Source: Desulfobacterales bacterium
Lineage (GTDB): Bacteria > Desulfobacterota > Desulfobacteria > Desulfobacterales > UBA5852
Assembly (NCBI GenBank): GCA_050122915.1
Contig: JASFIA010000001.1
Span: 1 to 25,755 of the forward strand
Direction: 5' to 3'
Length of the DNA: 25,755 bases
Of the stretch, positions 2,697 to 16,077 are shown piece by piece. Positions within the stretch are counted from its first letter, which is position 1. Each line of letters starts with the position of its first letter. Both the position numbers and the translations under genes were made by a program. The notes beneath the pieces were generated by a model. The model was given only the letters and a program-made list of their open reading frames with translations, had not been told where the DNA came from and did not search any database.

Positions 2697-2750
2697 TTTG
2701 ACCGTTTTGTGAATTGGGTTGACAATTTTTGACTGTTTGTGATTGATTCA
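2697..2750 (+). promoter_or_regulatory. Promoter and phased direct-repeat operator of the DeoR cluster
   Basis: TGA cores at 2699, 2710, 2720, 2730, 2740 (units TTTGACCGTT, TGTGAATTGG, GTTGACAATT, TTTGACTGTT, TGTGATTGAT); consensus TTGACA at 2719-2724. Confidence 0.65.
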
Positions 2751-2787
2751 GGGAAACTTCCCGAAAGCGCCTCTGAAAGAACCGGTC

Positions 2788-3609
2788 ATGGATACCAAGA
2801 ACGCTTCTGGCCTCATACCGGCACAGCGTCGCAGCCTCATTCTCGAGCTGATACGCCAAAACGGAGTCATCTCCGTCCAAGAGCTCTCCGATGTCATCGA
2901 CGTGTCTCTGTCCACCATTCGCCGTGATCTTTCCTGGCTGGCAAGGGCGGGCGCCGTGCACCGGAGCCATGGAGGCGCTGCCCTGAAGACCCGCCAGGCA
3001 ACGACATTCGAACCGTCCCATCAGGTGTCTTCACGGGTCGCTCATCGAGAAAAAGCCGCCATTGGGAAACGGGCCGTCGAGCGGTTAGAGGCCCACCAGA
3101 GCGTCATCTTCGATTCCAGTTCCACCGTATATGAGGCAGCTCTCCAGGTTGTCCGGGAGGGGTTGCCACTGACCGCAGTGACCAACGATATTCGTATCGC
3201 AGGGCTGCTTGCCGAGTGCTCGTTCATAAAGCTCATCGTGAGCGGAGGATCCCTTCGCGAGGGATCCTGTACCCTGCTGGGGGAGCCGGGGGCGACCTTT
3301 CTGCGAAGACTTCACGTGGATGTTGCCCTCATCGGCATTCATGCCATAACCGACGCCACCCTCTGCGACACCTCCACGGACGTCGCCGAGGTCAAGCACC
3401 ACATGGCGGCGGCAGCCAAGCGGGTCCTGGTACTGGCGGATGCCGCCAAGTTCAATTCCCTGGCCTTCTGTGACGCGATCGATTTGAAAGCCGTGGATGA
3501 GATCATTACCGACCAGCGGCTCGATCCCGGGAGTCGCCGACGTCTTGAGAAGCAGGGCGTTCACCTGTGCATTGCCGTTCCGGAGGCAGACGATCCCGGC
3601 TCCAGATGA
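2788..3609 (+). CDS. DeoR/GlpR-family transcriptional regulator
   Basis: N-terminal HTH (RRSLILELIRQNG..SVQELS..VS.STIRRDL..L..RSHGGA), EK.AIG..A, IFDSSSTV, TNDI, D.A.IG, LADAAKF. ATG 2788 chosen because the GTG 2743 start lies inside the operator. Confidence 0.95.
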   Translation: MDTKNASGLIPAQRRSLILELIRQNGVISVQELSDVIDVSLSTIRRDLSWLARAGAVHRSHGGAALKTRQATTFEPSHQVSSRVAHREKAAIGKRAVERLEAHQSVIFDSSSTVYEAALQVVREGLPLTAVTNDIRIAGLLAECSFIKLIVSGGSLREGSCTLLGEPGATFLRRLHVDVALIGIHAITDATLCDTSTDVAEVKHHMAAAAKRVLVLADAAKFNSLAFCDAIDLKAVDEIITDQRLDPGSRRRLEKQGVHLCIAVPEADDPGSR

Positions 3610-3703: not shown

Positions 3704-4549
3704 TTGGCTAAAAAACTCACCCGATTCGATCTTCAGCAAATGAAGGATAACGGACGAAGGGCCGTGTGGATGACGGCCTACGATTTCATCACCGCGAAGC
3801 TGGCGGAAGAGGCCGGCATGGACATGCTGCTGGTGGGCGACAGCCTCGGAATGGCCGTTTATGGCTATTCCGGCACCGTGCCCGTCACCATGGAACAGTG
3901 CATCTATCACACCGAAGCCGTGCGTCGAGCTGCGCCCGGCACCTTCGTGATCGGGGACATGCCCTTCGGGGCCTACCAGACCGGTGTCACGGATGCCTGC
4001 CGCAACGCCATCCGTTTTCACAAGGAAGCCGGTGTCGACTGCATCAAACTGGAAGGCGGCACTCGGGTGTCCGCAATCATCAGGGCGATCTCCGATGGCG
4101 GTATGCTGGTCATGGGCCATGTCGGGTTGACCCCTCAGAGCTCTGCCGCCATGGGCGGCTTCAGGGCCCAGGGGCGAACGGTTGACAGCGCTCGCGCCAT
4201 TATTGAAGATGCCAAGGCCGTCTGCGGCGCCGGGGCTTTTTCCGTGCTCGTAGAAGGGGTGCCGCCGGAAGTCACGGAGGTCATCCGGCGCGAGATTCCC
4301 ATCCCGGTGTACGGGATCGGGGCCGGTGACTGCGACGGCCAAGTCATGATCTGTTCGGACATTCTTGGACTATTCCAGGCGTTCACCCCAAAATTCGTCA
4401 AGCGATACGGAAACCTGGCGGAGGAATACCTGAAGGTGTTCACCGCATACGCGGATGACGTTCGAAGCGGAAAATTCCCCGGCGAATCTCACGTTTACCG
4501 CATGGCGGAGGGAGAAGCCGCAAAACTATCCCAAGAATGGAAACGATGA
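3704..4549 (+). CDS. panB: 3-methyl-2-oxobutanoate hydroxymethyltransferase (PanB/KPHMT family), possibly catabolic paralog
   Basis: TAYD, LLVGDSLGM, GDMPF, IKLEGG, GHVGLTPQ, GIGAG..DGQV, PKFVKRY; TTG start 3704 with AGGAGG RBS. Confidence 0.93.
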   Translation: MAKKLTRFDLQQMKDNGRRAVWMTAYDFITAKLAEEAGMDMLLVGDSLGMAVYGYSGTVPVTMEQCIYHTEAVRRAAPGTFVIGDMPFGAYQTGVTDACRNAIRFHKEAGVDCIKLEGGTRVSAIIRAISDGGMLVMGHVGLTPQSSAAMGGFRAQGRTVDSARAIIEDAKAVCGAGAFSVLVEGVPPEVTEVIRREIPIPVYGIGAGDCDGQVMICSDILGLFQAFTPKFVKRYGNLAEEYLKVFTAYADDVRSGKFPGESHVYRMAEGEAAKLSQEWKR

Positions 4550-5859
4550 CCATGGCCGACAGAGCCTTTTCCCTTGGATACGGAAAGGGGCGGATGGCGT
4601 TCGCCATCCCCGAGACCCATCTTCTCTACGAGCTGGTGGGTCGAAACCGCAGACCGCCCGCCGACCTGCCGACAGCCTACCGGCATGCCCTGGAACACCC
4701 CGTCGACAGCCCGCCCCTGAGGGAGATCGTCCGGCCGGGCGAGACCGTCGCCATCACAGTGAGCGACATCACCCGTGGGTGGCAGCGGAATCCCCTCACT
4801 CTGCCCATTCTCGTCGATTGCCTGAACGAGGCGGGGGTTTCCGACGATGACATCACCGTGATCATCGCCGTCGGCGCTCATCGGCAGAATACCCGCGACG
4901 AGGTCGTCGAACTCTGCAGCGAGGCGGTCTGCCACCGGGTGCGGGTCGTCAACCATGACGCCTGGGACTCGGCCAACATGGTCTCCTTCGGGAAAACGAG
5001 CCGGGGGACCGAGGTGGCTCTCAGTCGTATCGCCGTTGAGGCGGACCGGCTGATTCTGACCGGCGGTGTCATCTACCATTACATGGTGGGGTACGGGGGC
5101 GGACGCAAAAGCGTCATGCCGGGCGTCGCCTCCCTTAAAACCATCCAGCAGTGCCACATGTGGGCCATGGCCGGTGAGGTTGGAAAGGGCTCCAACCCCC
5201 TGGCAGCCAACATGAAAACCCGGGGCAACCCCGCTCACGAGGACATGATGGAGGTGGCGGCCTTTATCCAGCCCGACTTCATCGTCAACGTGGTGCCGAA
5301 CCTGGACGGTGACATCACCGGCATTTTTGCCGGGAACTGGGTGTCGGCCTGGTGGGAGGCAACGCGAATGGTCGACGGGATTTTCGGGGTGCCCATCAGG
5401 GAGCGGGCCGATATTGTCATCGCCTCGACCGGTGGCTATCCGAAGGACATCAACCTCTACCAGACACAGAAAACCATCGACAACGCCGTCTATGCTATGA
5501 AACCGGGGGGGGCGGCGATCATTCTGGCGGAGTGTCCCGACATCATGGAGCCCAGGGAGTTTTTCGACTGGTTCAACCATCCGTCGGCCCTGCAGTTGGA
5601 ACAAGCGGTCAGGGACCATTTTCTCATTTCCGGCTGGGTGGCCGTCCGCCAGCTGGAGTACTGCCAACAGGGCACCATTATTCTCGTGACGGAGGAGAAA
5701 AACCTTGAATTGGCGCGGCGGGCGGGGGTCATTCCGGTCACTACTACGGCGGAGGCCCTGCAATTGGCCTACGACAGCTGCGGCGCCGATCCCCCCAGTG
5801 TTACAGTCATGCCCCAGGGGGCGAACACTTTTCCCATCCTCGAGCCGACACCGGCCTGA
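4546..5859 (+). CDS. larA: LarA-family nickel-pincer-nucleotide racemase/epimerase (paralog 1)
   Basis: SDITR, AVGAHR, HYMVGYGGGRKSVMPG, downstream His (QQCH), DINLYQTQK, GGAAIILAEC; ATGA overlap with the panB stop. Confidence 0.9.
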   Translation: MTMADRAFSLGYGKGRMAFAIPETHLLYELVGRNRRPPADLPTAYRHALEHPVDSPPLREIVRPGETVAITVSDITRGWQRNPLTLPILVDCLNEAGVSDDDITVIIAVGAHRQNTRDEVVELCSEAVCHRVRVVNHDAWDSANMVSFGKTSRGTEVALSRIAVEADRLILTGGVIYHYMVGYGGGRKSVMPGVASLKTIQQCHMWAMAGEVGKGSNPLAANMKTRGNPAHEDMMEVAAFIQPDFIVNVVPNLDGDITGIFAGNWVSAWWEATRMVDGIFGVPIRERADIVIASTGGYPKDINLYQTQKTIDNAVYAMKPGGAAIILAECPDIMEPREFFDWFNHPSALQLEQAVRDHFLISGWVAVRQLEYCQQGTIILVTEEKNLELARRAGVIPVTTTAEALQLAYDSCGADPPSVTVMPQGANTFPILEPTPA

Positions 5860-5923: not shown

Positions 5924-6928
5924 ATGGGCAAGCGAATGGCAGCAGCAGTGATTCTGGCAGTGACCCTGGCGCTGATGGCGGTGCCGGCATTGGCGGCGAC
6001 CGTCCTCAAACTGGGAACCTCAACCCAACCCTCCCACATCTACAACGTGGCGGCTGAACACTTTGCCAAGATCGTTGCCGAGAAATCCAATGGAGCCCTT
6101 GAGGTTCAGGTGTTCCCGGCAGCCCAGCTGGGCTCCGAGCGGGACATGGTGGAGGGACTTCAGTTGGGATCCCTTGAAATGACCCTGACCTCCACCGGCC
6201 CGTTGGGCAACTTCGTCCCCCAGGTCAAGCTGTTCAATCTTCCCTTTCTCTTCAAGGACCGGGAGACCTGCTACAAGGTGTTGGACGGCCCGGTCGGCAC
6301 ATCGATCGCCGACAAGTTTCCGGCGGTGGGTATCCGTTCTCTGGGCTGGTTTGAAAACGGGTTTCGAAACGTCACCAACTCCAAGCGGGCCATCATGGCT
6401 CCCACCGACATGGACGGCCTGAAAATCAGGGTGATGGAGGATGACGTCTTCATCCTGACCATGAAATCCCTGGGTGCCAGCCCCCTGCCCATGGCTTTTG
6501 GAGAGCTCTACACCGCACTGGAGCAGAAGACCGTCGATGCCCAGGAAAACCCTCTGGCCGTCATTCATTCCTCACGGTTCTTCGAGGTTCAGAAGTATTT
6601 GGCCATGACCGGTCATTTTTATTCGCCGGCGATGCTTCTCATCAGTGAAATCACCTGGAAGTCCCTGTCGCCCGAGCACCAGAGCATCATCACCGACGCC
6701 GCCGCTCAGGCGAGGGATTTCGAGCGGAAAATTTCCCTCGAGGCCGATCAGAAACTCGAAGCGGAGCTGAAGGCGGCGGGTATGACGGTCACCCATCCGG
6801 ACAAAACGCCTTTTGTCGAGGCGGTTGCAGGCGTCTACGAAAACCCCTCCGTGCTGAAGGCCATAGGCGGGGGGGATGCGGCGGAGGGACAAAAATTGAT
6901 CGAGGCCGTCCGCAACGCATCGAACTAA
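5924..6928 (+). CDS. dctP: TRAP transporter periplasmic solute-binding protein (DctP family)
   Basis: Signal peptide (..AVPALA), QLGSERDMVEGLQLG, LFNLPFLF, GLKIRVM, MAFGELYTALEQKTVDAQENP; AAGGAGG RBS. Confidence 0.95.
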   Translation: MGKRMAAAVILAVTLALMAVPALAATVLKLGTSTQPSHIYNVAAEHFAKIVAEKSNGALEVQVFPAAQLGSERDMVEGLQLGSLEMTLTSTGPLGNFVPQVKLFNLPFLFKDRETCYKVLDGPVGTSIADKFPAVGIRSLGWFENGFRNVTNSKRAIMAPTDMDGLKIRVMEDDVFILTMKSLGASPLPMAFGELYTALEQKTVDAQENPLAVIHSSRFFEVQKYLAMTGHFYSPAMLLISEITWKSLSPEHQSIITDAAAQARDFERKISLEADQKLEAELKAAGMTVTHPDKTPFVEAVAGVYENPSVLKAIGGGDAAEGQKLIEAVRNASN

Positions 6929-7044: not shown

Positions 7045-7533
7045 ATGCAAACCCTTCTGTCGTGGATGGACCGAATGATCAATTGGGCGCTGGCGGTCCT
7101 GATGGCTGCCATGGTGGTGGTCATCGCTGCTCAGGTCTGGTACCGATTCGTCTTAAACGATCCCTTATCCTGGTCTGAGGAACTGGGGCGCTATCTCTTT
7201 GTCTGGATTTCTTTTATGGGGGCCGCCGCCGGCGTCCGTTACCAGGTGCATCTGGGGATCGATCTGCTCCAGAAGGTCCTGCCCCCCAATGCCTACAGGA
7301 TCATGGTCATCCTGATGAACGTCATCATTCAGGTGTTTCTGGTGACCGTCATCTACTGGGGATTCAAGATCCTGGGGATCATCCGGTTTCAGACCAGCGC
7401 CTCGATGAATGTCTCCATGCTCTATCCCTACCTGGCCGTACCGGTTGGGTGCATTTTCATGCTGATCAATTCCTTGAGGGTATCCGCCGCCGCCTTCCGG
7501 GGCCGTCGTCTGGACCGGGAGGTGATTCTATGA
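7045..7533 (+). CDS. dctQ: TRAP transporter small permease
   Basis: Four hydrophobic segments; QVWYRFVLNDPLSWSEELGRYLFVWISFMGAA, HLGID. Confidence 0.93.
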   Translation: MQTLLSWMDRMINWALAVLMAAMVVVIAAQVWYRFVLNDPLSWSEELGRYLFVWISFMGAAAGVRYQVHLGIDLLQKVLPPNAYRIMVILMNVIIQVFLVTVIYWGFKILGIIRFQTSASMNVSMLYPYLAVPVGCIFMLINSLRVSAAAFRGRRLDREVIL

Positions 7534-8807
7534 CCGTCATTCTGTTCGCCGTCCTCCTTATCTGCTTCGTTGTGGGCATGCCCATCGCCTTTTCCCTCGG
7601 GGTGGCTTCGGTGGCCACCCTCCAGTTCGGTTCCAATCTGCCACTGACCCTCGCGGCACAGCGCCTCTTCACGGGCACCGACTCCTTTCCCCTGATGGCG
7701 ATCCCCTTTTTCATGCTGGCCGGCGAGCTGATGGAGTCCGGAGGGATTTCTCGGCGGCTATTTGATTTCGCCCATGCCCTGGTGGGATTCGTTTTTGGCG
7801 GACTGGCGATGGTAGCGGTGGTCGCGGCCATGTTCTTCGCGGGCATCTCCGGCGCCGCTGCGGCCGACACCGCAGCGGTCGGAGCGGTATCTATCCCGGC
7901 CATGATCCGAAACGGCTACCAGAAAGGATTTGCCGCCGCCGTTCAGGCGGCGGGGGGGTCCATCGGTGTCATCATTCCTCCCTCCATACCCATGATTATC
8001 TTTGGCGTGGTGGGCGGCGTTTCCATCGGCAAGATGTTTATGGGCGGGTTTATCCCCGGCGCCTTGATCGGCGGTGGACTCATGCTCACCAGCTATTTCA
8101 TGGCCAGAAGGGCCGGCTATCGGAAAGAATCCTTCCTGGGATTTCGGCAAATCGTGCGGACCTTTTTGGGGGCGATTTGGGCCCTGCTCATGCCCATCAT
8201 CATTCTGGGGGGGATTCTTGGAGGCATTTTCACGCCCACGGAGGCGGCGGTGGTGGCCGCCCTCTATGGTCTTGCCGTGGGGTTCTTCATCTATAGAGAA
8301 CTCCGGATTAAGGATCTTCCCCGCATCTTCGCCAAGGCGGCCATCTCTACCTCCACGGTGATGCTGCTCATCGCCACCGCCAACATCTTCGGCTGGATTT
8401 TGACCGCGGAGCGGGTGCCCCAGAACGTCGCCGCCTATCTGGTGACCCTCACGGCTTCCAAGCACGTCCTTTATGCCTTGATCCTGGCCTGTCTCCTCGT
8501 GGTGGGAACCTTTATGGAGACATCGGCGTCCCTCATCATTCTGACCCCTGTCTTCCTGCCGGTGGTAGAACAGTTCGGGATCGATCCGGTCCACTTTGGC
8601 GTAATCATGGTGACGGCTCTGGCCATCGGCATGCTGACGCCGCCCCTGGGCATCTGTCTTTTCATATCGTGCAACATCGCTAGGATCGAACTCTCGGAGA
8701 TCATCCGATTTATTTTGCCCTTTCTGGCCATTATGATCGGCCTGCTGGTGCTGATGACCTACGTTCCCGAAATTATTCTTTTCGTCCCTAATCTCTTAGG
8801 AGAATAA
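7530..8807 (+). CDS. dctM: TRAP transporter large permease
   Basis: FPLMAIPFFMLAGELM, FAGISGAAAAD, IIPPSIPMI, GIFTPTEAA, DPVHFG, GMLTPPLG; ATGA overlap with dctQ. Confidence 0.96.
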   Translation: MTVILFAVLLICFVVGMPIAFSLGVASVATLQFGSNLPLTLAAQRLFTGTDSFPLMAIPFFMLAGELMESGGISRRLFDFAHALVGFVFGGLAMVAVVAAMFFAGISGAAAADTAAVGAVSIPAMIRNGYQKGFAAAVQAAGGSIGVIIPPSIPMIIFGVVGGVSIGKMFMGGFIPGALIGGGLMLTSYFMARRAGYRKESFLGFRQIVRTFLGAIWALLMPIIILGGILGGIFTPTEAAVVAALYGLAVGFFIYRELRIKDLPRIFAKAAISTSTVMLLIATANIFGWILTAERVPQNVAAYLVTLTASKHVLYALILACLLVVGTFMETSASLIILTPVFLPVVEQFGIDPVHFGVIMVTALAIGMLTPPLGICLFISCNIARIELSEIIRFILPFLAIMIGLLVLMTYVPEIILFVPNLLGE

Positions 8808-8812
8808 CCCCT

Positions 8813-10087
8813 ATGCCCCAGGTCACCTTCCCATTCGGTGGTGAAAGCCTGTCCGTCGATGTTCCGGACCGAAATCTGGCTGAAGTGTTGGCCCCCAAGC
8901 CTTCGAGATCCATCGACGACCTGCCGGCGGCCATTTCGGCTGCCCTCGACAGCCCCATCGACCAACCGCGGCTTGAGGAGTGGGTTCACTCCAGCGACAG
9001 GGTGCTGATCGTCAGCGACGACATTACCCGTTTGACGCCCTGCGATCGCATCATTCCGCCCCTGCTCGACCGGTTGAATGCTGCCGGGGTGCCGGACGAT
9101 CGGATTTCTTGCATCATGGCCCTGGGAACCCACCGATACATGACCGAGTCCGAGATGGTTCAAAAAGTCGGAGAAACGGTTTGCCGGCGGATTCTCGTCT
9201 TCAATCACGAATGGCGGGATCCGAAGGCTCTGGCGGACCTGGGTGCCTCCGAGCAGGGCACGCCGCTGGTGGTAAACCGGGCGGCGGTGGAGGCGGAAGT
9301 CGTCATTGGATTGGGGGCAATCGTTCCTCACCACATCCCGGGTTTTTCCGGTTCCTCCAAGATTATCCAGCCAGGTATCAGCGGCTCCCGGACCACAGCG
9401 GAAACCCATCTGCTATCCTGCGGCGGCGGCGGGGACTCCTTTCTTGGCGCCGAGGACAATCCGGTGCGTCGGGACATGGACGAGATGGCCGATCGGGTCG
9501 GGATGAAAACCATTTTCAACGTGGTCATGGACAGTCAGGGGGCTGTGGTAGGCGTCTTTTTCGGAGAGATGCGCGGCGCATTCCGGAAGGGGGTGGAACT
9601 GGCCAGGGAGATCTACGGCATCCCCTATCGCGAAGTGCCCGATGTGGTGATCGCCAATGCTTATCCTTGCGAGCTCGATTTCTGGCAGTCCCACAAGGCC
9701 CAGTATCCGGCCCAGCGGATGATCCGTCCCGGCGGCACTATCATCGTCTGCACGCCGGCGCCGGAAGGGGTGAGCCCTGTGCACACGGAACTGCTTGAAT
9801 TTACGGCATGGTCTTCCACGGATATCAAAGCGGCCTATCGGAAAGGCCGGATTTCCAACGGGGTGGCCTGCGCACTGGCCGTCGCATGGGCCATGGTGAG
9901 GGAAAAGGCATCTGTCATTCTTTTTTCTCCAGGCATCCCGGAACCGGACAAGCGCCGGTTGGGGCACACCCACGCACCATCCCTGGAATGGGCGATGGCG
10001 GAAGCCATTCGCCGGCAGGGCAGGGATGCACGGATCTCCGTGCTGACCCATGCCCCGGATATGCTGCCCATTGGCCCGATGGCTTGA
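8813..10087 (+). CDS. larA: LarA-family nickel-pincer-nucleotide racemase/epimerase (paralog 2)
   Basis: SDDITR.TP, ALGTHR, PHHIPGFSGSSKIIQPG, AETH, LDFWQSHK, PGGTII..TPAPEG. Confidence 0.9.
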   Translation: MPQVTFPFGGESLSVDVPDRNLAEVLAPKPSRSIDDLPAAISAALDSPIDQPRLEEWVHSSDRVLIVSDDITRLTPCDRIIPPLLDRLNAAGVPDDRISCIMALGTHRYMTESEMVQKVGETVCRRILVFNHEWRDPKALADLGASEQGTPLVVNRAAVEAEVVIGLGAIVPHHIPGFSGSSKIIQPGISGSRTTAETHLLSCGGGGDSFLGAEDNPVRRDMDEMADRVGMKTIFNVVMDSQGAVVGVFFGEMRGAFRKGVELAREIYGIPYREVPDVVIANAYPCELDFWQSHKAQYPAQRMIRPGGTIIVCTPAPEGVSPVHTELLEFTAWSSTDIKAAYRKGRISNGVACALAVAWAMVREKASVILFSPGIPEPDKRRLGHTHAPSLEWAMAEAIRRQGRDARISVLTHAPDMLPIGPMA

Positions 10088-10108: not shown

Positions 10109-11386
10109 GTGAACGATAACAATATCCATGTGGCGGTTGTGGCCGATGACCTGACCGGTGCGGCCGACACCGGCGTTCAATTCTGTTCCGTTGCGGAGCC
10201 GTTTGATCTGCTGCCGTGGCAGCCCCGGGAGTGGTCCGGCGGCTTCTCCGGGGCAGTGAAGGGTTTGGCCGTTTTTACCAACTCCCGGCACGATTCACCC
10301 CCAGCAGCCGCTCGCAAAGTGCGTCGGGTTGCCGATCTCATCAGGAGGCATGCCCCCAGGGTCGTCTACAAAAAAATCGACTCCTGTCTGAGGGGCAATC
10401 TCGGTTCTGAAATCGATGCGCTCCTTGAGTCCCTTGAGTGCCCGGTGAGTTTCATCGCCCCGGCGCTGCCCGGTCAGGAGCGGACCACGGAAAACGACGT
10501 TCATCGGGTTCGAGGCGTCCCCGTGGCGGAGAGCGAGATCGCCCTCGACCCCCTTTGCCCGGTATCGGAGTCCCGGCTGTCCCGGCTGCTGGCCGCCCAG
10601 AGCCGGTATCCTGTCGGGCGGGTGGGGCTGGAGGATGTCGCCGCCGGCTCGGAGCGGCTTCGGGCGGCCATCGGTTCCCGGATGGCCGAGGGGTGCCGGC
10701 ATATCGCTTTCGATGCCACCGAAACCGTCCATCTGGATGCCATCGCAGCCGCAGCCACCCGGTTTTTTACAGGCGCCCTTTTGGTCGGATCCGCCGGTCT
10801 TGCCGCCAGCCAGGCGTCCTGGCTGGGAGAAAAGACCCGGACATTGGCGTCACTCCCTACCCGGCGACTTCAGCGGATGCTTTGGGTTTGCGGGTCGGCA
10901 ACGACGGTGTCGCTCCGTCAGGCGGAGGCGCTCAGGGACCGTTCGGTGGTCGCCCCGATCGTCTTGCCGGCAGCCATGCTGGCTGATGCCGAGAGCGCAT
11001 CGGGTCGGAAAGGGTTTGTCGATCAAGTGATCGCCGGCTGGTCCCAGGGGGTTCGGATGATTTTGATCGAGCCCCTCGGAAAGGGGCCACATGCTGATCC
11101 AGCACTGGTGGTTGCCGGGCTCGGGGCGATTGTGGCCGATATCGTCCGCCTCACGTCGCCGGAAGGCCTGTTTTTGACCGGAGGCGATACCGCCGAGGCT
11201 GTCTGGCGCTGCCTCGGGGCTGCCGCCATCCGCCTTGAAGGAGAGGTCTTGCCTGGCGTGATTCGAGGGCGCTGGATTGGAGGCGCCATGAACGGCGGGA
11301 CAGTGATCACCAAGGCCGGGGCCTTCGGCGACCCGGAAACCCTGTTAAATCTCTATAGCCAATCCGTGAGAGGGGTGACGCAATGA
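10109..11386 (+). CDS. Four-carbon acid-sugar kinase (DUF1537/DUF1357; DtnK/DenK type)
   Basis: ADDLTGAADTG, YKKIDSCLRGNLGSE, PALP..ERTT, LTGGDTA, ITKAGAFG; adjacent to pdxA; GTG start. Confidence 0.9.
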   Translation: MNDNNIHVAVVADDLTGAADTGVQFCSVAEPFDLLPWQPREWSGGFSGAVKGLAVFTNSRHDSPPAAARKVRRVADLIRRHAPRVVYKKIDSCLRGNLGSEIDALLESLECPVSFIAPALPGQERTTENDVHRVRGVPVAESEIALDPLCPVSESRLSRLLAAQSRYPVGRVGLEDVAAGSERLRAAIGSRMAEGCRHIAFDATETVHLDAIAAAATRFFTGALLVGSAGLAASQASWLGEKTRTLASLPTRRLQRMLWVCGSATTVSLRQAEALRDRSVVAPIVLPAAMLADAESASGRKGFVDQVIAGWSQGVRMILIEPLGKGPHADPALVVAGLGAIVADIVRLTSPEGLFLTGGDTAEAVWRCLGAAAIRLEGEVLPGVIRGRWIGGAMNGGTVITKAGAFGDPETLLNLYSQSVRGVTQ

Positions 11387-12411
11387 GCACAGGCCACCGT
11401 CCGATTCTGGGCATAACCATGGGAGATCCCGGAGGGATCGGCCCTGAAATTTGCGCCAAAGCACTCAGGGACGATGCCATCTACGATATCTGCCGCCCCC
11501 TCGTTGTCGGTGATGCCGGCGTTATGGGTAATGCCGTGGACTTCTGCGGGCTGGGACTCGATGTCTACTCGGTGGTGAACCCCACTGACGGGGCTTACCG
11601 CAAGGGACGAATCGACGTCCTGGACTTGACCAACATGCCGATGGCCGAGCTACGGCATAAGACAGTGACCCCGCTCCAGGGCAAGGCATCCTTCGAGTAC
11701 ATCGCGCGGGCGATCGCCCTGGCCCTTGCCGGTGACATCGACGGCACGGTGACGGGACCGATCAACAAGGCCTCCATCAACGCAGCCGGGTTCCATTACG
11801 CCGGTCACACCGAGATCTACGCCCATCTCACCCGAACCCGGGACTACTCCATGATGTTGGTCGAAGGGGGGTTCCGGGTCACCCACGTGTCCACCCATGT
11901 CTCATTGAGGGAGGCCTGCGATCGGGTGAAGAAGGAGCGGGTAGAGACGGTTGTCGACCTCACCCATGACGCCTTGACCCGCCTGGGTATTCCCAGGCCG
12001 CGAATCGCCGTTGCCGGCCTCAATCCCCACTGCGGGGAAGGGGGGCTCTTTGGAACCGAGGACGACCGGGAGATCGCCCCGGCAGTGGCGGCGGCCCGAG
12101 AAAAGGGACGGCTGGTCCAGGGGCCTCTACCGGCCGACACCGTGTTCTCGAAAATGCGGGGAGGCATGTTCGACGCCGTGGTGGTCATGTATCATGACCA
12201 GGGCCATATCCCCACGAAGCTGGTGGGCTTCCAGTACGACGACAACACCGGCACATGGGGCCAGATGGCGGGCGTCAACGTCACCCTGGGACTCCCCATC
12301 ATCCGCACTTCCGTGGATCACGGCACCGCCTTTGGAAAGGCCGGTGAGGGCCGTGCCAACCCCCAGTCCATGATCGAAGCGGTTAAGCTTGCCGCCCGAA
12401 TGGCCCAGTGA
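11383..12411 (+). CDS. pdxA: PdxA-family dehydrogenase, PdxA2 type (4-phospho-D-threonate/erythronate 3-dehydrogenase, decarboxylating)
   Basis: GITMGDPGGIGPE, TGPINK, GHTE, LNPHCGE, MYHDQGHIP, VNVTLGLPIIRTSVDHGTAF; ATGA overlap with the kinase stop. Confidence 0.93.
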   Translation: MSTGHRPILGITMGDPGGIGPEICAKALRDDAIYDICRPLVVGDAGVMGNAVDFCGLGLDVYSVVNPTDGAYRKGRIDVLDLTNMPMAELRHKTVTPLQGKASFEYIARAIALALAGDIDGTVTGPINKASINAAGFHYAGHTEIYAHLTRTRDYSMMLVEGGFRVTHVSTHVSLREACDRVKKERVETVVDLTHDALTRLGIPRPRIAVAGLNPHCGEGGLFGTEDDREIAPAVAAAREKGRLVQGPLPADTVFSKMRGGMFDAVVVMYHDQGHIPTKLVGFQYDDNTGTWGQMAGVNVTLGLPIIRTSVDHGTAFGKAGEGRANPQSMIEAVKLAARMAQ

Positions 12412-12446: not shown

Positions 12447-14114
12447 ATGCGCAGCCGGAACATCCTAAGCCGCCCGGAATGGAGCATCAACCGGGCCTAC
12501 TACAAATCCATGGGTTACACGGATCTGGATCTCGACCGTCCCCTTATCGGCATCGCCAATGCATGGAGTACGACCGTGCCCGGCCACATCAACTTGAGAC
12601 AAGTGGCCGAATCCGTGAAGGCCGGTATCTGGAGCACTGGCGGAACTCCTGTGGAATTCGGCGTGATCGGTGCCTGCGACGGCATCGCCGAAGGTCACGC
12701 GGGAATGAGATACATCCTCCCCACCAGGGATGTCATCGCCGACAGTATCGAACTCATGGTTCAGGCCCATCAGTATGATGGTGTGGTTTTGCTGGGTTCC
12801 TGCGATAAAATCGTACCGGGTATGCTTATGGCCGCCGCCCGGCTTGATCTTCCGGCCATCCTGGTCAATGGCGGACCGATGTTGGGGGGGCCAGAGATTG
12901 CCGGCCGGATCTCGGATTCCACTTCCATTATCGAAGCCGTGGGTCGCCTAAAAAAGGGGGAAATTACCGAGGCGGATCTGGCCGGCATGGAGGATGCCTG
13001 TGCACCCACCTGCGGTTCCTGCTCCTTTCTTGGAACCGCCAACACGATGGGATGCATTGCAGAGGCACTGGGCATGTCTCTTACCGGAAGTGCAGTGATT
13101 CCAGCCACCCACGCCCGTCGCATGCACGTGGCCCAGGCCAGCGGCCGGGCCATCACGAGACTGGTCAAGGACGGTGTCGGCGCCCGACAGATTCTTACCG
13201 GCGAGGCCATCGAAAACGCCGTTCGCCTCACTGCCGCCATCGGCGGGTCCACCAACGCGGCCCTTCATATCCCGGCTATTGCCTACGAAGCCCACGTTGC
13301 ATTCGATATCGGGATGTTCGACAGGATCAGTCGGACAACGCCCCTGATCGCCAAGATGAACCCTGCCGCCGCCGTCAATGTGATCGATTTTTACGCTTCC
13401 GGCGGCGTGCCTGCGGTCATGGCGGAGCTGATGCCTCTGCTCAACACAGAGGCTCTGACGGTAACCGGAATGACCATGGGGGAAAATCTGGCCGGCTGCC
13501 GTTCCCCGAACGATGCGGTGATCCGAACCCTCGAAGCGCCCTTCAGTGCCACCGGGGGACTGGCGGTTCTCTACGGGAGCCTCGCCCCCCAGTCGGCCGT
13601 GACGAAACCGGCGGCCATTCGAAGCGACATGTTGATCTTTTCCGGACCGGCCAGGGTCTTCGACTCAGAGCAGCAGGCCAACACGGCCATCCTGCAAGGA
13701 GCGGTGATACCGGGGGACGTTGTGGTGATCCGCTATGAGGGGCCCAAAGGAGGGCCGGGAATGCCCGAGATGTTCAAGGCCATGAAGTTGATACACGGCT
13801 TGGGACTGTCCGATCGGGTCGCCCTCGTCACCGACGGCCGGTTTTCAGGAACCAACAATGGGTGCTGCGTCGGCCATATCTCTCCGGAGGCCATGGAGGG
13901 TGGCCCCATTGCCCTGGTGCAAGACGGCGACACCATCACCATCGACATCCCCGGCAAACGACTTGATTTGACGGTATCGGAAGCCGACCTCGATGCCCGC
14001 CGCTCCCGGTGGGAGCGGCCGGCGCCCCGGGTCTCGGAGGGCTACCTTTACCTCTACAGTCGACTGGCCGAGTCTGCCGACAAGGGAGCCATTATCCGAA
14101 ACCGGGCCGGTTGA
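12447..14114 (+). CDS. ilvD: IlvD/Edd-family Fe-S dehydratase (dihydroxy-acid or sugar-acid dehydratase)
   Basis: PGH..L, CDGIA.GH.GM, GSCDKIVPG, CGSCSFLGTANTM, GGSTNA, RYEGPKGGPGMPEM, TDGRFSG, GHISPE; ATG 12447 follows a GGGGAG RBS. Family is secure, substrate is not. Confidence 0.88.
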   Translation: MRSRNILSRPEWSINRAYYKSMGYTDLDLDRPLIGIANAWSTTVPGHINLRQVAESVKAGIWSTGGTPVEFGVIGACDGIAEGHAGMRYILPTRDVIADSIELMVQAHQYDGVVLLGSCDKIVPGMLMAAARLDLPAILVNGGPMLGGPEIAGRISDSTSIIEAVGRLKKGEITEADLAGMEDACAPTCGSCSFLGTANTMGCIAEALGMSLTGSAVIPATHARRMHVAQASGRAITRLVKDGVGARQILTGEAIENAVRLTAAIGGSTNAALHIPAIAYEAHVAFDIGMFDRISRTTPLIAKMNPAAAVNVIDFYASGGVPAVMAELMPLLNTEALTVTGMTMGENLAGCRSPNDAVIRTLEAPFSATGGLAVLYGSLAPQSAVTKPAAIRSDMLIFSGPARVFDSEQQANTAILQGAVIPGDVVVIRYEGPKGGPGMPEMFKAMKLIHGLGLSDRVALVTDGRFSGTNNGCCVGHISPEAMEGGPIALVQDGDTITIDIPGKRLDLTVSEADLDARRSRWERPAPRVSEGYLYLYSRLAESADKGAIIRNRAG

Positions 14115-14304: not shown

Positions 14305-16077
14305 ATGGGCCGACCCGTCGCCGTTGCCATCGCCGTTCTGTGGATGGTTATTTGTTTCTCCACCCGTGCCATCGAAGCAGGCGTCCCTCCGGCAGACGTG
14401 ATTCTATACAACGGCCGGATTCACACAATGAACGATCGTCAGCGCCAGGCGGCCATGATTGCCGTGGTCGGGGATCGCATCGTCCATGTGGGAGGGGCGG
14501 GGGATGTGGACCGGTGGCGGGGGGACGCCACCCAACTGATCGATCTCGAGGGCCGAACCGTGATCCCGGGACTGATCGAAAGCCACGGGCATCTCCTCGC
14601 ACTGGGGCGTTCTCGAATGATTTTGGATCTAAGCGGGGCCCATAACTTTGACGACCTCGTCCGGCGGGTGGCATCGGCGGTTGAGGCAACCCCTTCCGGG
14701 CAATGGATCCTTGGGGCGGGATGGCATCAGAGCAAATGGGATCCGCCGCCGGATCCGGCGGTCAACGGGTTCCCTGTCCATCGCGTCCTGAGCCAGGTCA
14801 GTCCGTCTCATCCGGTGTTTCTTACCCATGCAAGCGGTCACGCCGGACTGGCCAACGCCATGGCCATAGCCCTTGCGGGCATTACGCCCCATACCGTGGT
14901 CGACGGCGATGGAGAAATCATTCGGGAGCCAGACGGAACGCCCACGGGCGTCTTTACCGAGCGTGCACAGGAGCTGATCCGCCGGGCCATACCCGAGGCC
15001 ACGCCGGAGCGGAATCGACAGGCCCTCTCCCTGGCCATTTCAGAGGCCCTCGAAAACGGGATCACGAGCTTCAGGGATGCCGGCTCCAGCAGGGAGGATA
15101 TCGACCGATACCGATCCTTCTTGTCCGAAGGCCGCCTGGGGGTGAGGGTATGGGTGATGGTGGACGGGAGTGACAGCGATCTGGTGGAGGAATGGTTGGA
15201 ACGGGGGCCCGAGATCGACTCGGGGAACCGATTCCTGACCATTCGGGCCTTCAAGCTGTTTGCCGATGGGGCCCTGGGTTCCCGGGGCGCATGGCTTCTG
15301 TCTCCTTACGCCGACCGGCCCGAGCACTCGGGCCACAGCCTGATCGCCATGGAAGACCTTTATCGACTCTCGGCGGCCGCATTGAGGAGGGGGTTTCAGC
15401 TCTGCGTCCATGCCATCGGAGACCGGGCCAACCGGGAGGTGTTGAACCAGTTCGAGCGCGCCTTCACATCTTATCCCGCCAATTCACAAGACCACCGTTT
15501 CCGGATCGAGCACGCCCAGCACATCGATCCCTCGGATATCCCGCGTTTTGCCAGGATGGGGGTGATCGCCTCGGTTCAAGGAATTCATTTCTCTTCGGAT
15601 CGACCCTGGGCCATCGACCGCTTGGGCAGGGACCGAATCAGTGACGGGGCCTATCCATGGCAATCGCTATTGGCTTCGGGGGCTGTGGTGGTCAACGGTA
15701 CGGATGCCCCGGTGGAGCCCATAAATCCCATCGCCTCCTTCTACGCGTCGGTTACCCGGAAAACCCTCGACGGTCGACCCCAGAACGGTTTCGAGCCTTA
15801 CCAGCGGATGAGCCGTCATCAGGCTTTGAAGGCCTATACCCTGGATGCGGCCTTTGCCGGATTCGAGGACTCGGTCAAGGGATCCATCGAGGTCGGAAAG
15901 CTGGCGGATTTCACCGTGCTTTCCCGGGACATCATGACCATTGCCGAGGACAGGATTCTCGGCACACGGGTCGAGATGACCATTATCGGGGGGCGTGTGG
16001 CCTATTCCAGGGCGGAGCGACGAGGGGCTTCCGTCGCCCCCACGCCGTCGACATCGAGGGTTACGAGATATCCATGA
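14305..16077 (+). CDS. Exported metal-dependent amidohydrolase (amidohydrolase_3 / YtcJ-like)
   Basis: Signal-peptide-like N-terminus; NGRIHTM, DLEGRTVIPGLIESHGH, KLFADGALGSRGA, HAIGDRA, RIEHAQ, GTDAPVE, KGSIEVGKLADF. Confidence 0.9.
   Translation: MGRPVAVAIAVLWMVICFSTRAIEAGVPPADVILYNGRIHTMNDRQRQAAMIAVVGDRIVHVGGAGDVDRWRGDATQLIDLEGRTVIPGLIESHGHLLALGRSRMILDLSGAHNFDDLVRRVASAVEATPSGQWILGAGWHQSKWDPPPDPAVNGFPVHRVLSQVSPSHPVFLTHASGHAGLANAMAIALAGITPHTVVDGDGEIIREPDGTPTGVFTERAQELIRRAIPEATPERNRQALSLAISEALENGITSFRDAGSSREDIDRYRSFLSEGRLGVRVWVMVDGSDSDLVEEWLERGPEIDSGNRFLTIRAFKLFADGALGSRGAWLLSPYADRPEHSGHSLIAMEDLYRLSAAALRRGFQLCVHAIGDRANREVLNQFERAFTSYPANSQDHRFRIEHAQHIDPSDIPRFARMGVIASVQGIHFSSDRPWAIDRLGRDRISDGAYPWQSLLASGAVVVNGTDAPVEPINPIASFYASVTRKTLDGRPQNGFEPYQRMSRHQALKAYTLDAAFAGFEDSVKGSIEVGKLADFTVLSRDIMTIAEDRILGTRVEMTIIGGRVAYSRAERRGASVAPTPSTSRVTRYP

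Follow-up and report, generated by a model that had tools for sequence, protein, structure and literature searches.

A second IlvD-type dehydratase in a Desulfobacterales genome

The window analysed here is a stretch of 25,755 nucleotides from a Desulfobacterales bacterium (contig JASFIA010000001.1 of assembly GCA_050122915.1). At positions 12447-14114 of its forward strand it carries a gene for a paralog of the dihydroxy-acid dehydratase (DHAD) IlvD, which is the last of 10 co-directional genes (DeoR, PanB, LarA1, DctP, DctQ, DctM, LarA2, DUF1537 kinase, PdxA and IlvD; Table 1). The stop-free open reading frame (ORF) encodes 555 amino acids. It starts with the ATG at 12447, with the Shine-Dalgarno sequence GGGGAG located 7 nt 5′ of the start, and the alignments with orthologs begin at residue 1-2 of the protein, in agreement with this start. 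Both Pfam domains of the family were found at full length (ILVD_EDD_N, 407 bits, profile positions 1-316; ILV_EDD_C, 248 bits, positions 2-191), and the IlvD/Edd ligand set was complete and conserved, i.e., Cys119/Asp120/Lys121, Cys192, Asp78, Glu441 and the catalytic Ser467. The unusual motifs quoted in the initial annotation of this DNA were all present in the translated ORF: CSFLGTANTM lies in the region of residues 189-201 (CGSCSFLGTANTM) and YILPTR in GMRYILPTR (residues 86-94). In addition, the protein has SGTN where canonical IlvD has SGGT; the other canonical motifs are C(A/G)GM(F/Y)TAN and YSLxSR.

The assembly is a metagenome-assembled genome (MAG), 70% complete and in 509 contigs. 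A second, canonical IlvD is encoded on contig 52 of the same MAG (G000:C52, L001:883-2553). It is 49% identical to the window copy, carries CAGMFTANSM, YSLGSR and SGGT, and reaches 824 bits on the family model NF002068, versus 704 bits for the window copy. In each of five other genomes checked there was an ortholog at 72-80% identity together with 1-4 further IlvD-family genes, and a canonical IlvD was also found in these genomes. The initial annotation had proposed a check for a separate housekeeping ilvD, and this copy is one: the window protein is a paralog and not the housekeeping IlvD. As had also been stated there, ilvB, ilvN and ilvC were not found among those window ORFs that were annotated.

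The distribution of the gene was analyzed on 47 genome loci, obtained from a scan at one genome per species, and on a survey of 150 genomes of the same order. In the survey, copies at 61-76% identity occurred in 10 genomes (in one case as a truncated fragment at a contig end), and all the other IlvD matches were at or below 52% identity. From this bimodal distribution it follows that the window-type gene is accessory and patchy, and that the canonical type is near-universal. The orthologs are labeled as dihydroxy-acid dehydratase in public records, where they are misannotated.

Cys77 of the window protein sits in a CDG motif, and PGH is found where the [2Fe-2S] type has PCN. PGH with CDG is the Cys pattern of the E. 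coli-type and YagF enzymes, whereas [2Fe-2S] DHADs have PCN and SDG; because of this pattern the window enzyme is predicted to be oxygen-labile. Both IlvD copies of the genome carry PGH and CDG, not PCN and SDG, and the Fe-S cluster of both is probably oxygen-labile, as in the E. coli-type enzymes.

A separate clade with an altered active-site pocket

Extra copies were added to the scanned loci for a maximum-likelihood tree, in which 38 distinct sequences formed one clade (support 100/99) and the housekeeping copies fell outside. The members belong to Thermodesulfobacteriota, Bacillota and Chloroflexota and show 63-80% identity, whereas the identity of the window clade to the housekeeping copies is 44-50%. 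The motif CSFLGTANTM was present in 37 of the 38 members, with CAFLGTANSM in the remaining one, SGTNNG was present in all of them and YILPTR in 36, and GACDGIAEGH was found in each of the 35 members of at least 72% identity; thus, YSL and GIAMxH of the DHADs are replaced by YIL and GIAEGH. Because these motifs are near-invariant across a clade of 38 members, they are not due to chance. Being monophyletic, and having its own signature and a PanB-paralog neighbourhood (see below), the clade is a distinct IlvD subfamily.

The specificity hot-spots of the IlvD/Edd superfamily have been set by modelling and mutagenesis (Melse et al., PMC9314677), and with the exception of hot-spot 224, which was left out of the comparison because of indels at that position, they were located in the clade. 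Hot-spot 261, four residues past the third Cys, is occupied by Gly in sugar-acid dehydratases and by Tyr or Phe in branched-chain DHADs (PMC9314677); the clade has Gly here (Gly196 of the window protein). In the catalytic loop, DHADs read SGGT and sugar-acid dehydratases SGTA (PMC9314677); the clade reads SGTN, so that Thr554 is as in the sugar-acid dehydratases and position 555 is Asn, not Ala. Hot-spot 73 is Ile (Ile14), as in PuDHT, whereas DHADs have Pro. The Mg-ligand position 138 is Asp78, i.e., of the DHAD type (sugar-acid enzymes have Glu), and the C-terminal His that holds the C5/C6 hydroxyls in sugar-acid dehydratases is not present in the window protein. Of the hot-spots of the DHAD class (Pro73, Tyr/Phe261, SGGT and Asp138) only Asp138 is therefore kept, clade-wide. 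Gly261, SGTN and Ile73, taken together with the retained Asp138 and the lack of the C-terminal His, indicate from the sequence a protein of the DHAD lineage with a pocket shifted towards the sugar-acid type, without the long-chain device. In FtDHAD, the Y261G and SGGT-to-SGTA changes almost abolish the activity on dihydroxyisovalerate (PMC9314677).

The family scores also place the protein in the DHAD lineage and in neither the YagF/YjhG nor the arabinonate/xylonate dehydratase lineage. It passes the ilvD equivalog models TIGR00110 (675 vs cut-off 618) and NF002068 (704 vs cut-off 644), although with 112-120 bits less than the canonical copy of the same genome, and its best overall score is ilvD. 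It remains below the cut-offs of NF009559 (L-arabinonate dehydratase, 458 vs 882), NF009560 (431 vs 684), NF004784 (514 vs 539) and the YjhG/YagF model TIGR03432 (270 vs 808, with 555 aa vs an architecture of roughly 655 aa). A resemblance to YagF/YjhG had been suspected from the FLGT motif, and locally it was borne out: E. coli K-12 YagF, a proven D-xylonate dehydratase, reads C-Q-F-L-G-T-A at the aligned position, and C-x-F-L-G-T-A, CDG and PGH are common to both proteins. However, these are only local motifs, since the overall identity is 35% and the family score is far below the cut-off.

By score, the nearest lineage is that of the branched-chain DHADs (TIGR00110/NF002068; 6OVT, Synechocystis 6NTE and FtDHAD), with an E value of 1e-142 to M. 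tuberculosis 6OVT, and the fold, the length, the CDK motif, the third Cys, the catalytic Ser and Asp138 are shared with it. The clade differs from these enzymes in its separate and patchy occurrence, in the Ile/Gly/Thr/Asn set at hot-spots 73/261/554/555 and in a catabolic genomic context. With the sugar-acid dehydratases (RlArDHT, 5J84; CcXyDHT, 5OYN; PuDHT; YagF/YjhG) it shares Gly261 and Thr554, and the role proposed below, the supply of a 2-keto-3-deoxy acid to a partner that cleaves a C-C bond, would be shared as well. It differs from them in the Asp at the Mg ligand position and in the missing C-terminal His, and in the partner, which is here a PanB paralog and there an aldolase of the DapA or HpcH type.

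A PanB paralog and tetrahydrofolate genes beside the dehydratase

The co-encoded PanB (ketopantoate hydroxymethyltransferase) had been named at the outset as a fitting partner of the dehydratase, and this proposal gained from the comparison of loci, in which the adjacency was kept in several gene orders and a linkage to fhs, fchA and folD appeared. A PanB paralog was found within 9 kb of the IlvD paralog in 24 of the 38 clade loci, in at least five gene orders, and two further loci were cut by contig ends but had the same gene order. The full ten-gene order was present in Desulfosarcina, Desulfofustis and Desulfopila; Desulfofustis glycolicus DSM 9705 (ortholog WP_073375662.1) is among the carriers of the complete cluster. 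The Peptococcaceae-type order is IlvD-kinase-PdxA-(LarA2)-PanB, the Desulfobacter-type order is GntR-IlvD-PanB-DctPQM, after which come a UxaA-family dehydratase and an FAD oxidase, and the order in Clostridiaceae is DctPQM-LarA1-PanB-IlvD(-PanB). In other loci the IlvD-PanB pair stands by itself or is accompanied by an aldo-keto reductase and an Amidohydro_2 lactonase-like gene. As the genomes, of 4-6.6 Mb, hold 2-6 PanB genes each, chance adjacency to IlvD is expected at about 3% or less.

The PanB paralog of the window passes the panB equivalog cut-off; it is a full-score PanB, with a weak PEP_mutase match. In each checked genome one PanB copy adjoins panC (pantoate-beta-alanine ligase), panE or DUF2520. 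These copies are the top scorers on the family model, and the IlvD-linked PanBs fall in other subclades. Because of that score and that adjacency, the former are the housekeeping copies, and the IlvD-linked PanB is a separate paralog. PanB is expanded to 2-6 copies per genome in the sulfate reducers and Clostridia checked (G001-G005, the genomes of L003, L012, L026, L036 and L018).

Genes of tetrahydrofolate (THF) metabolism were linked to the clade as well. In Tindallia sp. (L031:5751-16117) the order is DctPQM, a 3-hydroxyacyl-CoA-dehydrogenase-family gene, IlvD, Fhs, FchA (FTCD_C), FolD and PanB. The full THF C1-oxidation set is thus placed between IlvD and PanB, inside the cluster of the TRAP (tripartite ATP-independent periplasmic) transporter. 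In total, fhs was found in six clade loci, namely this one, with fchA and folD, and five of the Peptococcaceae type, in which Fhs is two genes upstream of IlvD. The linkage of fhs, fchA and folD ties the IlvD-PanB pair to methylene-THF metabolism. The window genome also encodes Fhs, and LarC, an enzyme of the cofactor NPN (nickel-pincer nucleotide).

In the Peptococcaceae-type loci (L010, L013, L014, L030 and L039) a Dpp/Opp-type ABC transporter, a class-III aminotransferase, IclR, fhs and a class-I/II aminotransferase lie upstream, and a sigma-54 activator with a domain that binds cyclic nucleotides (cNMP) lies downstream of the IlvD-kinase-PdxA-PanB operon. In these loci the same intermediates may be supplied from an amino acid, for example homoserine or 4-hydroxythreonine.

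In other genomes LarA1 occurs together with PanB and IlvD, and LarA2 accompanies the kinase and PdxA, which suggests that the cluster consists of two modules. LarA1 belongs to LarAH10, of which only the Megasphaera elsdenii enzyme has been characterised; it is promiscuous, has low rates and is best on gluconate and mannonate, and its native substrate is considered unresolved. Tetronates are not among the substrates listed for it, and no IlvD or PanB context was found in the LarA work of Desguin (2020 and 2024), supplements included.

The solute-binding protein DctP is 42-44% identical to 4PDD, 4PDH, 4P9K/4PAK and 4NQ8 (these include hits of structure searches with a predicted model of mean predicted local distance difference test, pLDDT, 91), which we take to be binders of D-erythronate and (R)-pantoate. 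It is 37-38% identical to DctPAm, the sugar-acid binder of Advenella (7BBR/7BCO). The nearest solved relatives are annotated as binders of sugar acids or sialic acid or have uninformative names, and none of them is called a dicarboxylate binder.

Table 1. Features of the window in the region of the IlvD paralog
Feature	Position	Strand	Remarks
DeoR-family regulator	2743..3609	+	head of cluster; start provisional
PanB (ketopantoate hydroxymethyltransferase) paralog	3704..4549	+	TTG start behind AAGGAGG
LarA homolog 1	4546..5859	+	NCBIfam LarAH10, 594 vs cut-off 540
TRAP solute-binding protein DctP	5924..6928	+	signal peptide; start is Met74 of the long ORF
TRAP small membrane subunit DctQ	7045..7533	+	
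TRAP large membrane subunit DctM	7530..8807	+	
LarA homolog 2	8813..10087	+	under every NCBIfam cut-off
DUF1537 four-carbon acid-sugar kinase	10109..11386	+	best family D-threonate kinase, 221 bits vs cut-off 450
PdxA-family oxidative decarboxylase (PdxA2-like)	11383..12411	+	overlaps kinase stop
IlvD/Edd-family dehydratase paralog	12447..14114	+	555 aa; Pfam, family profiles, motifs
Key residues of the IlvD paralog			Cys77-Asp78 (CDG); Cys119-Asp120-Lys121 (CDK); Cys192; Gly196 (hot-spot 261); Glu441
Key residues, continued			Ser467-Gly-Thr469-Asn470 (SGxx); Ile14 (hot-spot 73)
Amidohydro_3 protein	14305-16077		590 aa; downstream of IlvD

The Amidohydro_3 gene was considered as a member of the module and rejected, since it is conserved only in the nearest relative. 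In this relative, an uncultured Desulfobacteraceae MAG with proteins about 90% identical (L049:10001-10467), the cluster is intact from DeoR to PdxA, and what remains of the IlvD gene is directly followed by the Amidohydro_3 gene.

Remoter IlvD paralogs, 44-48% identical and with Gly at hot-spot 261 (CSLMG and CNLLG), were observed at L057 (G004:C11) and L024:377-2900. Each adjoins its own PanB paralog, and L057 also a DctP, and the IlvD and PanB of these pairs cluster together in both trees. IlvD-PanB modules may hence be a wider theme with several substrates.

The proposed substrate and route

From the altered pocket and the PanB/THF neighbourhood we infer a substrate, a product and a direction of the PanB reaction. 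The reading that we favour, to which we give about even credence, is that the enzyme would be a dehydratase of 2R-tetronates (L-threonate and/or D-erythronate) that makes 4-hydroxy-2-oxobutanoate, which would be split by the PanB paralog. A four-carbon acid is favoured because THF-dependent cleavage needs a 2-oxo acid with a primary 4-OH, because the IlvD reaction yields such a product only from a 2,3,4-trihydroxy acid, because the kinase-PdxA2 pair is of the tetronate type, and because the solved proteins closest to DctP would be binders of D-erythronate and (R)-pantoate.

The stereochemical premise of the initial annotation agrees with the literature: L-threonate is 2R,3S, as are D-xylonate, D-gluconate and L-arabinonate (PMC12994016; PMC9314677). 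Furthermore, L-threonate is already dehydrated by enzymes of either class, DHADs and sugar-acid dehydratases, with 12-18% of their highest activity (PMC9314677), and by analogy the reaction would be chemically feasible for an enzyme of this type. C2 must be R, but 2R,3R as well as 2R,3S acids are substrates of DHAD-lineage enzymes (PMC9314677), and for this reason D-erythronate appears equally possible. The prediction of an L-threonate dehydratase hence stood in part, i.e., the non-housekeeping status and the sugar-acid-type pocket were found, but the sequence does not single out L-threonate over D-erythronate, and L-threonate alone is proposed with lower confidence than the tetronates as a class.

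The enzyme would be an oxygen-sensitive Fe-S/Mg dehydratase of the DHAD lineage, re-specialised for a 2R four-carbon sugar acid and acting by the usual IlvD/Edd mechanism, in which Ser467 would take H-2 and the Fe-S cluster would remove the 3-OH, so that 4-hydroxy-2-oxobutanoate would be the product. For the PanB paralog we propose the reverse of the ketopantoate hydroxymethyltransferase reaction, which would give pyruvate and 5,10-methylene-THF; the latter can be oxidised by anaerobes to formate, with a gain of ATP, or be channelled into the Wood-Ljungdahl pathway. The normal PanB reaction is reported to be reversible (Powers and Snell 1976). LarA homolog 1 is a candidate C2-epimerase, by which the 2S epimer would be made available to the dehydratase in its 2R form. 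A parallel branch of a known type, from D-tetronates to dihydroxyacetone phosphate (DHAP) and CO2, would consist of LarA homolog 2, the kinase and PdxA2. Two branches are proposed because PdxA needs the secondary 3-OH that dehydration removes; a single linear pathway with IlvD, kinase, PdxA and PanB acting on one substrate was discarded, as there is no chemically consistent order for it. The UxaA-family dehydratase of the Desulfobacter-type loci could act directly on the 2S,3R isomer. D-altronate, the known substrate of the UxaA family, is 2S,3R, and therefore IlvD and UxaA could cover opposite stereoisomers that converge on one product with an achiral C3.

Strict anaerobes of at least three phyla may thus have an undescribed non-phosphorylative route for C4 sugar acids, with a dehydratase, a catabolic PanB that releases no free formaldehyde, FolD/FchA/Fhs or the Wood-Ljungdahl pathway, and LarA epimerases that funnel other stereoisomers into it; we put this wider route forward tentatively, as a possibility somewhat short of probable.

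Several points weigh against this proposal. The protein passes both ilvD equivalog cut-offs and scores best as ilvD, and its Mg ligand is that of a DHAD. Ordinary DHADs already act on L-threonate, so that the remodelled pocket could serve another acid. Pyruvate is reported not to be a substrate of E. coli PanB (Powers and Snell 1976), and a new specificity would thus be required of the PanB paralog. No PanB was found in the fetched flanks of 12 of the 38 clade loci. In the nearest relative, the IlvD paralog is a remnant of about 310 bp that matches residues 130-232 with frame breaks, while PanB is kept; this is either a gene loss or a long-read assembly error. The linkage to fhs and folD fits either direction of the PanB reaction, although the transporters and repressors argue for the catabolic one. 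Finally, no enzyme activity of any of the 38 clade members was found in the searched literature.

Alternative substrates

The pocket could instead serve a branched 2,3,4-trihydroxy acid, i.e., D-apionate or a 3-methyl analogue, which would give a 3-substituted 4-hydroxy-2-oxo acid from which one or more PanBs would transfer one or two hydroxymethyl groups to THF. A substituent at C3, as such an acid would offer, is required by E. coli PanB. The enzyme descends from the branched-chain DHAD lineage, D-apionate, likewise a 2R acid, is a dihydroxylated 2,3-dihydroxyisovalerate analogue, and the hydrophobic Met-Phe after the third Cys of the DHADs is replaced in the clade. Some loci would also suit this chemistry: two different PanB paralogs flank IlvD in some of them (L038), and L046 adds an aldo-keto reductase and the Amidohydro_2 lactonase-like gene, as in oxidative aldose routes. 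Nevertheless, we regard it as unlikely, since the kinase-PdxA2 branch is unable to handle a substrate with a tertiary C3, the single natural enantiomer of D-apionate leaves no role for a LarA epimerase, and the published apionate routes use ApnO, OiaK and RuBisCO-like proteins, none of which is present here. The kinase-PdxA pair itself was considered as an ApnO/OiaK pair and rejected, since ApnO has a fold similar to the one seen in ketol-acid reductoisomerase (KARI) (PMC13753588).

Gly261, Thr554 and FLGT are common to the pentonate and hexonate dehydratases, and a C5/C6 aldonate (xylonate, arabinonate or gluconate) could thus be the substrate, with PanB as a class-II aldolase that works without THF and yields pyruvate and glycolaldehyde or glyceraldehyde. 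The identity of DctP to DctPAm, the GntP-family permease that adjoins the gene in L026 and the preference of the Megasphaera LarAH10 would agree with such an acid. However, the fhs-fchA-folD linkage points to a C1 unit and not to a C2 or C3 aldehyde, and the clusters have no conserved aldehyde dehydrogenase or reductase; furthermore, the window protein lacks the His for the C5/C6 hydroxyls and the chemistry of the kinase-PdxA2 pair is C4-specific, all of which makes this substrate class quite unlikely.

An ordinary biosynthetic DHAD, present as a redundant isozyme or in order to provide PanB with 2-oxoisovalerate for pantoate synthesis, would account for the equivalog scores and for the name of the orthologs in public records, and IlvD followed by PanB would be consecutive steps of pantoate synthesis. 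This is very unlikely, since a canonical IlvD, and a PanB with PanC/PanE, are encoded elsewhere in the same genomes, the hot-spots are changed clade-wide (in FtDHAD, Y261G and SGGT-to-SGTA almost abolish the dihydroxyisovalerate activity), the gene sits in transporter clusters regulated by DeoR, GntR or IclR, and its occurrence is patchy (10 clade-level copies in the 150 genomes, with loss in the nearest relative). Catabolism of pantoate or pantothenate, prompted by the presence of PanB and by the pantoate-type binders, was also considered for the dehydratase and rejected, as pantoate has no 3-OH.

A tartrate dehydratase that forms oxaloacetate, with PanB as an oxaloacetate decarboxylase of the phosphoenolpyruvate (PEP)-mutase/isocitrate-lyase superfamily type, is scarcely credible. 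In its favour, TRAP transporters such as this one are of the "dicarboxylate" type, tartrates are epimerised by some LarA homologs and PanB does belong to the PEP-mutase superfamily, as its weak PEP_mutase match shows. However, the paralog has a full PanB score, neither the linkage to THF genes nor the kinase-PdxA2 pair would be accounted for, and no nearest solved binding protein is described as a dicarboxylate binder.

Relation to known tetronate routes and significance

The proposed 2R-tetronate dehydratase would differ from what has been described for tetronates. The known bacterial routes proceed via 2-oxo- and 3-oxo-tetronate with OtnK and OtnC (LtnD/DenD-OtnI-OtnK-OtnC), via Ltn3D, or via DtnK/DenK and PdxA2, and all of those described end in DHAP (PMC12994016, PMC13753588, PMC12540250). 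A DUF1537 kinase and PdxA2 are also present in the window operon, and a transporter and a DeoR regulator accompany known tetronate clusters as they do here (PMC10580937). The described routes oxidise or phosphorylate their substrate, and none of them involves a dehydratase, 4-hydroxy-2-oxobutanoate or THF.

The same reaction type and product as proposed here are found in a synthetic 2,4-dihydroxybutyrate pathway via a D-threonate dehydratase (Frazao et al. 2023, PMC10079672). The engineered step relies on promiscuous D-arabinonate dehydratases, Hh.AraD and Aa.AraD, with low activity on the 2S,3R isomer (PMC10079672), whereas a dedicated natural enzyme for the 2R isomers is proposed here. In the searched literature, dehydration of threonate is described solely as a promiscuous activity or an engineered one, its step is the stated bottleneck of 2,4-dihydroxybutyrate production (PMC10079672, PMC13279387), and 2-oxo-4-hydroxybutyrate has been called non-natural (PMC13279387). 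As to PanB, the partner passes the panB cut-off and the proposed chemistry is its normal reaction reversed; the differences are its separation from the PanC/PanE-adjacent PanB, the catabolic direction and the new substrate that are proposed. In the searched literature we found neither a natural route with a tetronate dehydratase and PanB, nor PanB or ketopantoate hydroxymethyltransferase together with names of 4-hydroxy-2-oxobutanoate.

L-threonate, from the breakdown of ascorbate, and D-erythronate are common in plants, animals and sediments, and the window enzyme is likely the entry point of an undescribed breakdown pathway for acids of the threonate/erythronate type. The context of LarA1 makes tetronates candidate substrates of this LarAH10 protein. 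If the proposed route is correct, 4-hydroxy-2-oxobutanoate would be a natural intermediate, and the naturally optimised enzyme would be a direct candidate for the dehydratase step to 2,4-dihydroxybutyrate. The systematic misannotation of the orthologs as dihydroxy-acid dehydratase would be corrected, and the 2-6 PanB and up to five IlvD-family genes of these anaerobes would be accounted for. It would be the first natural tetronate dehydratase and the first catabolic role for PanB, and the combination of a dehydratase with a THF-dependent lyase would represent a new logic in sugar-acid catabolism.

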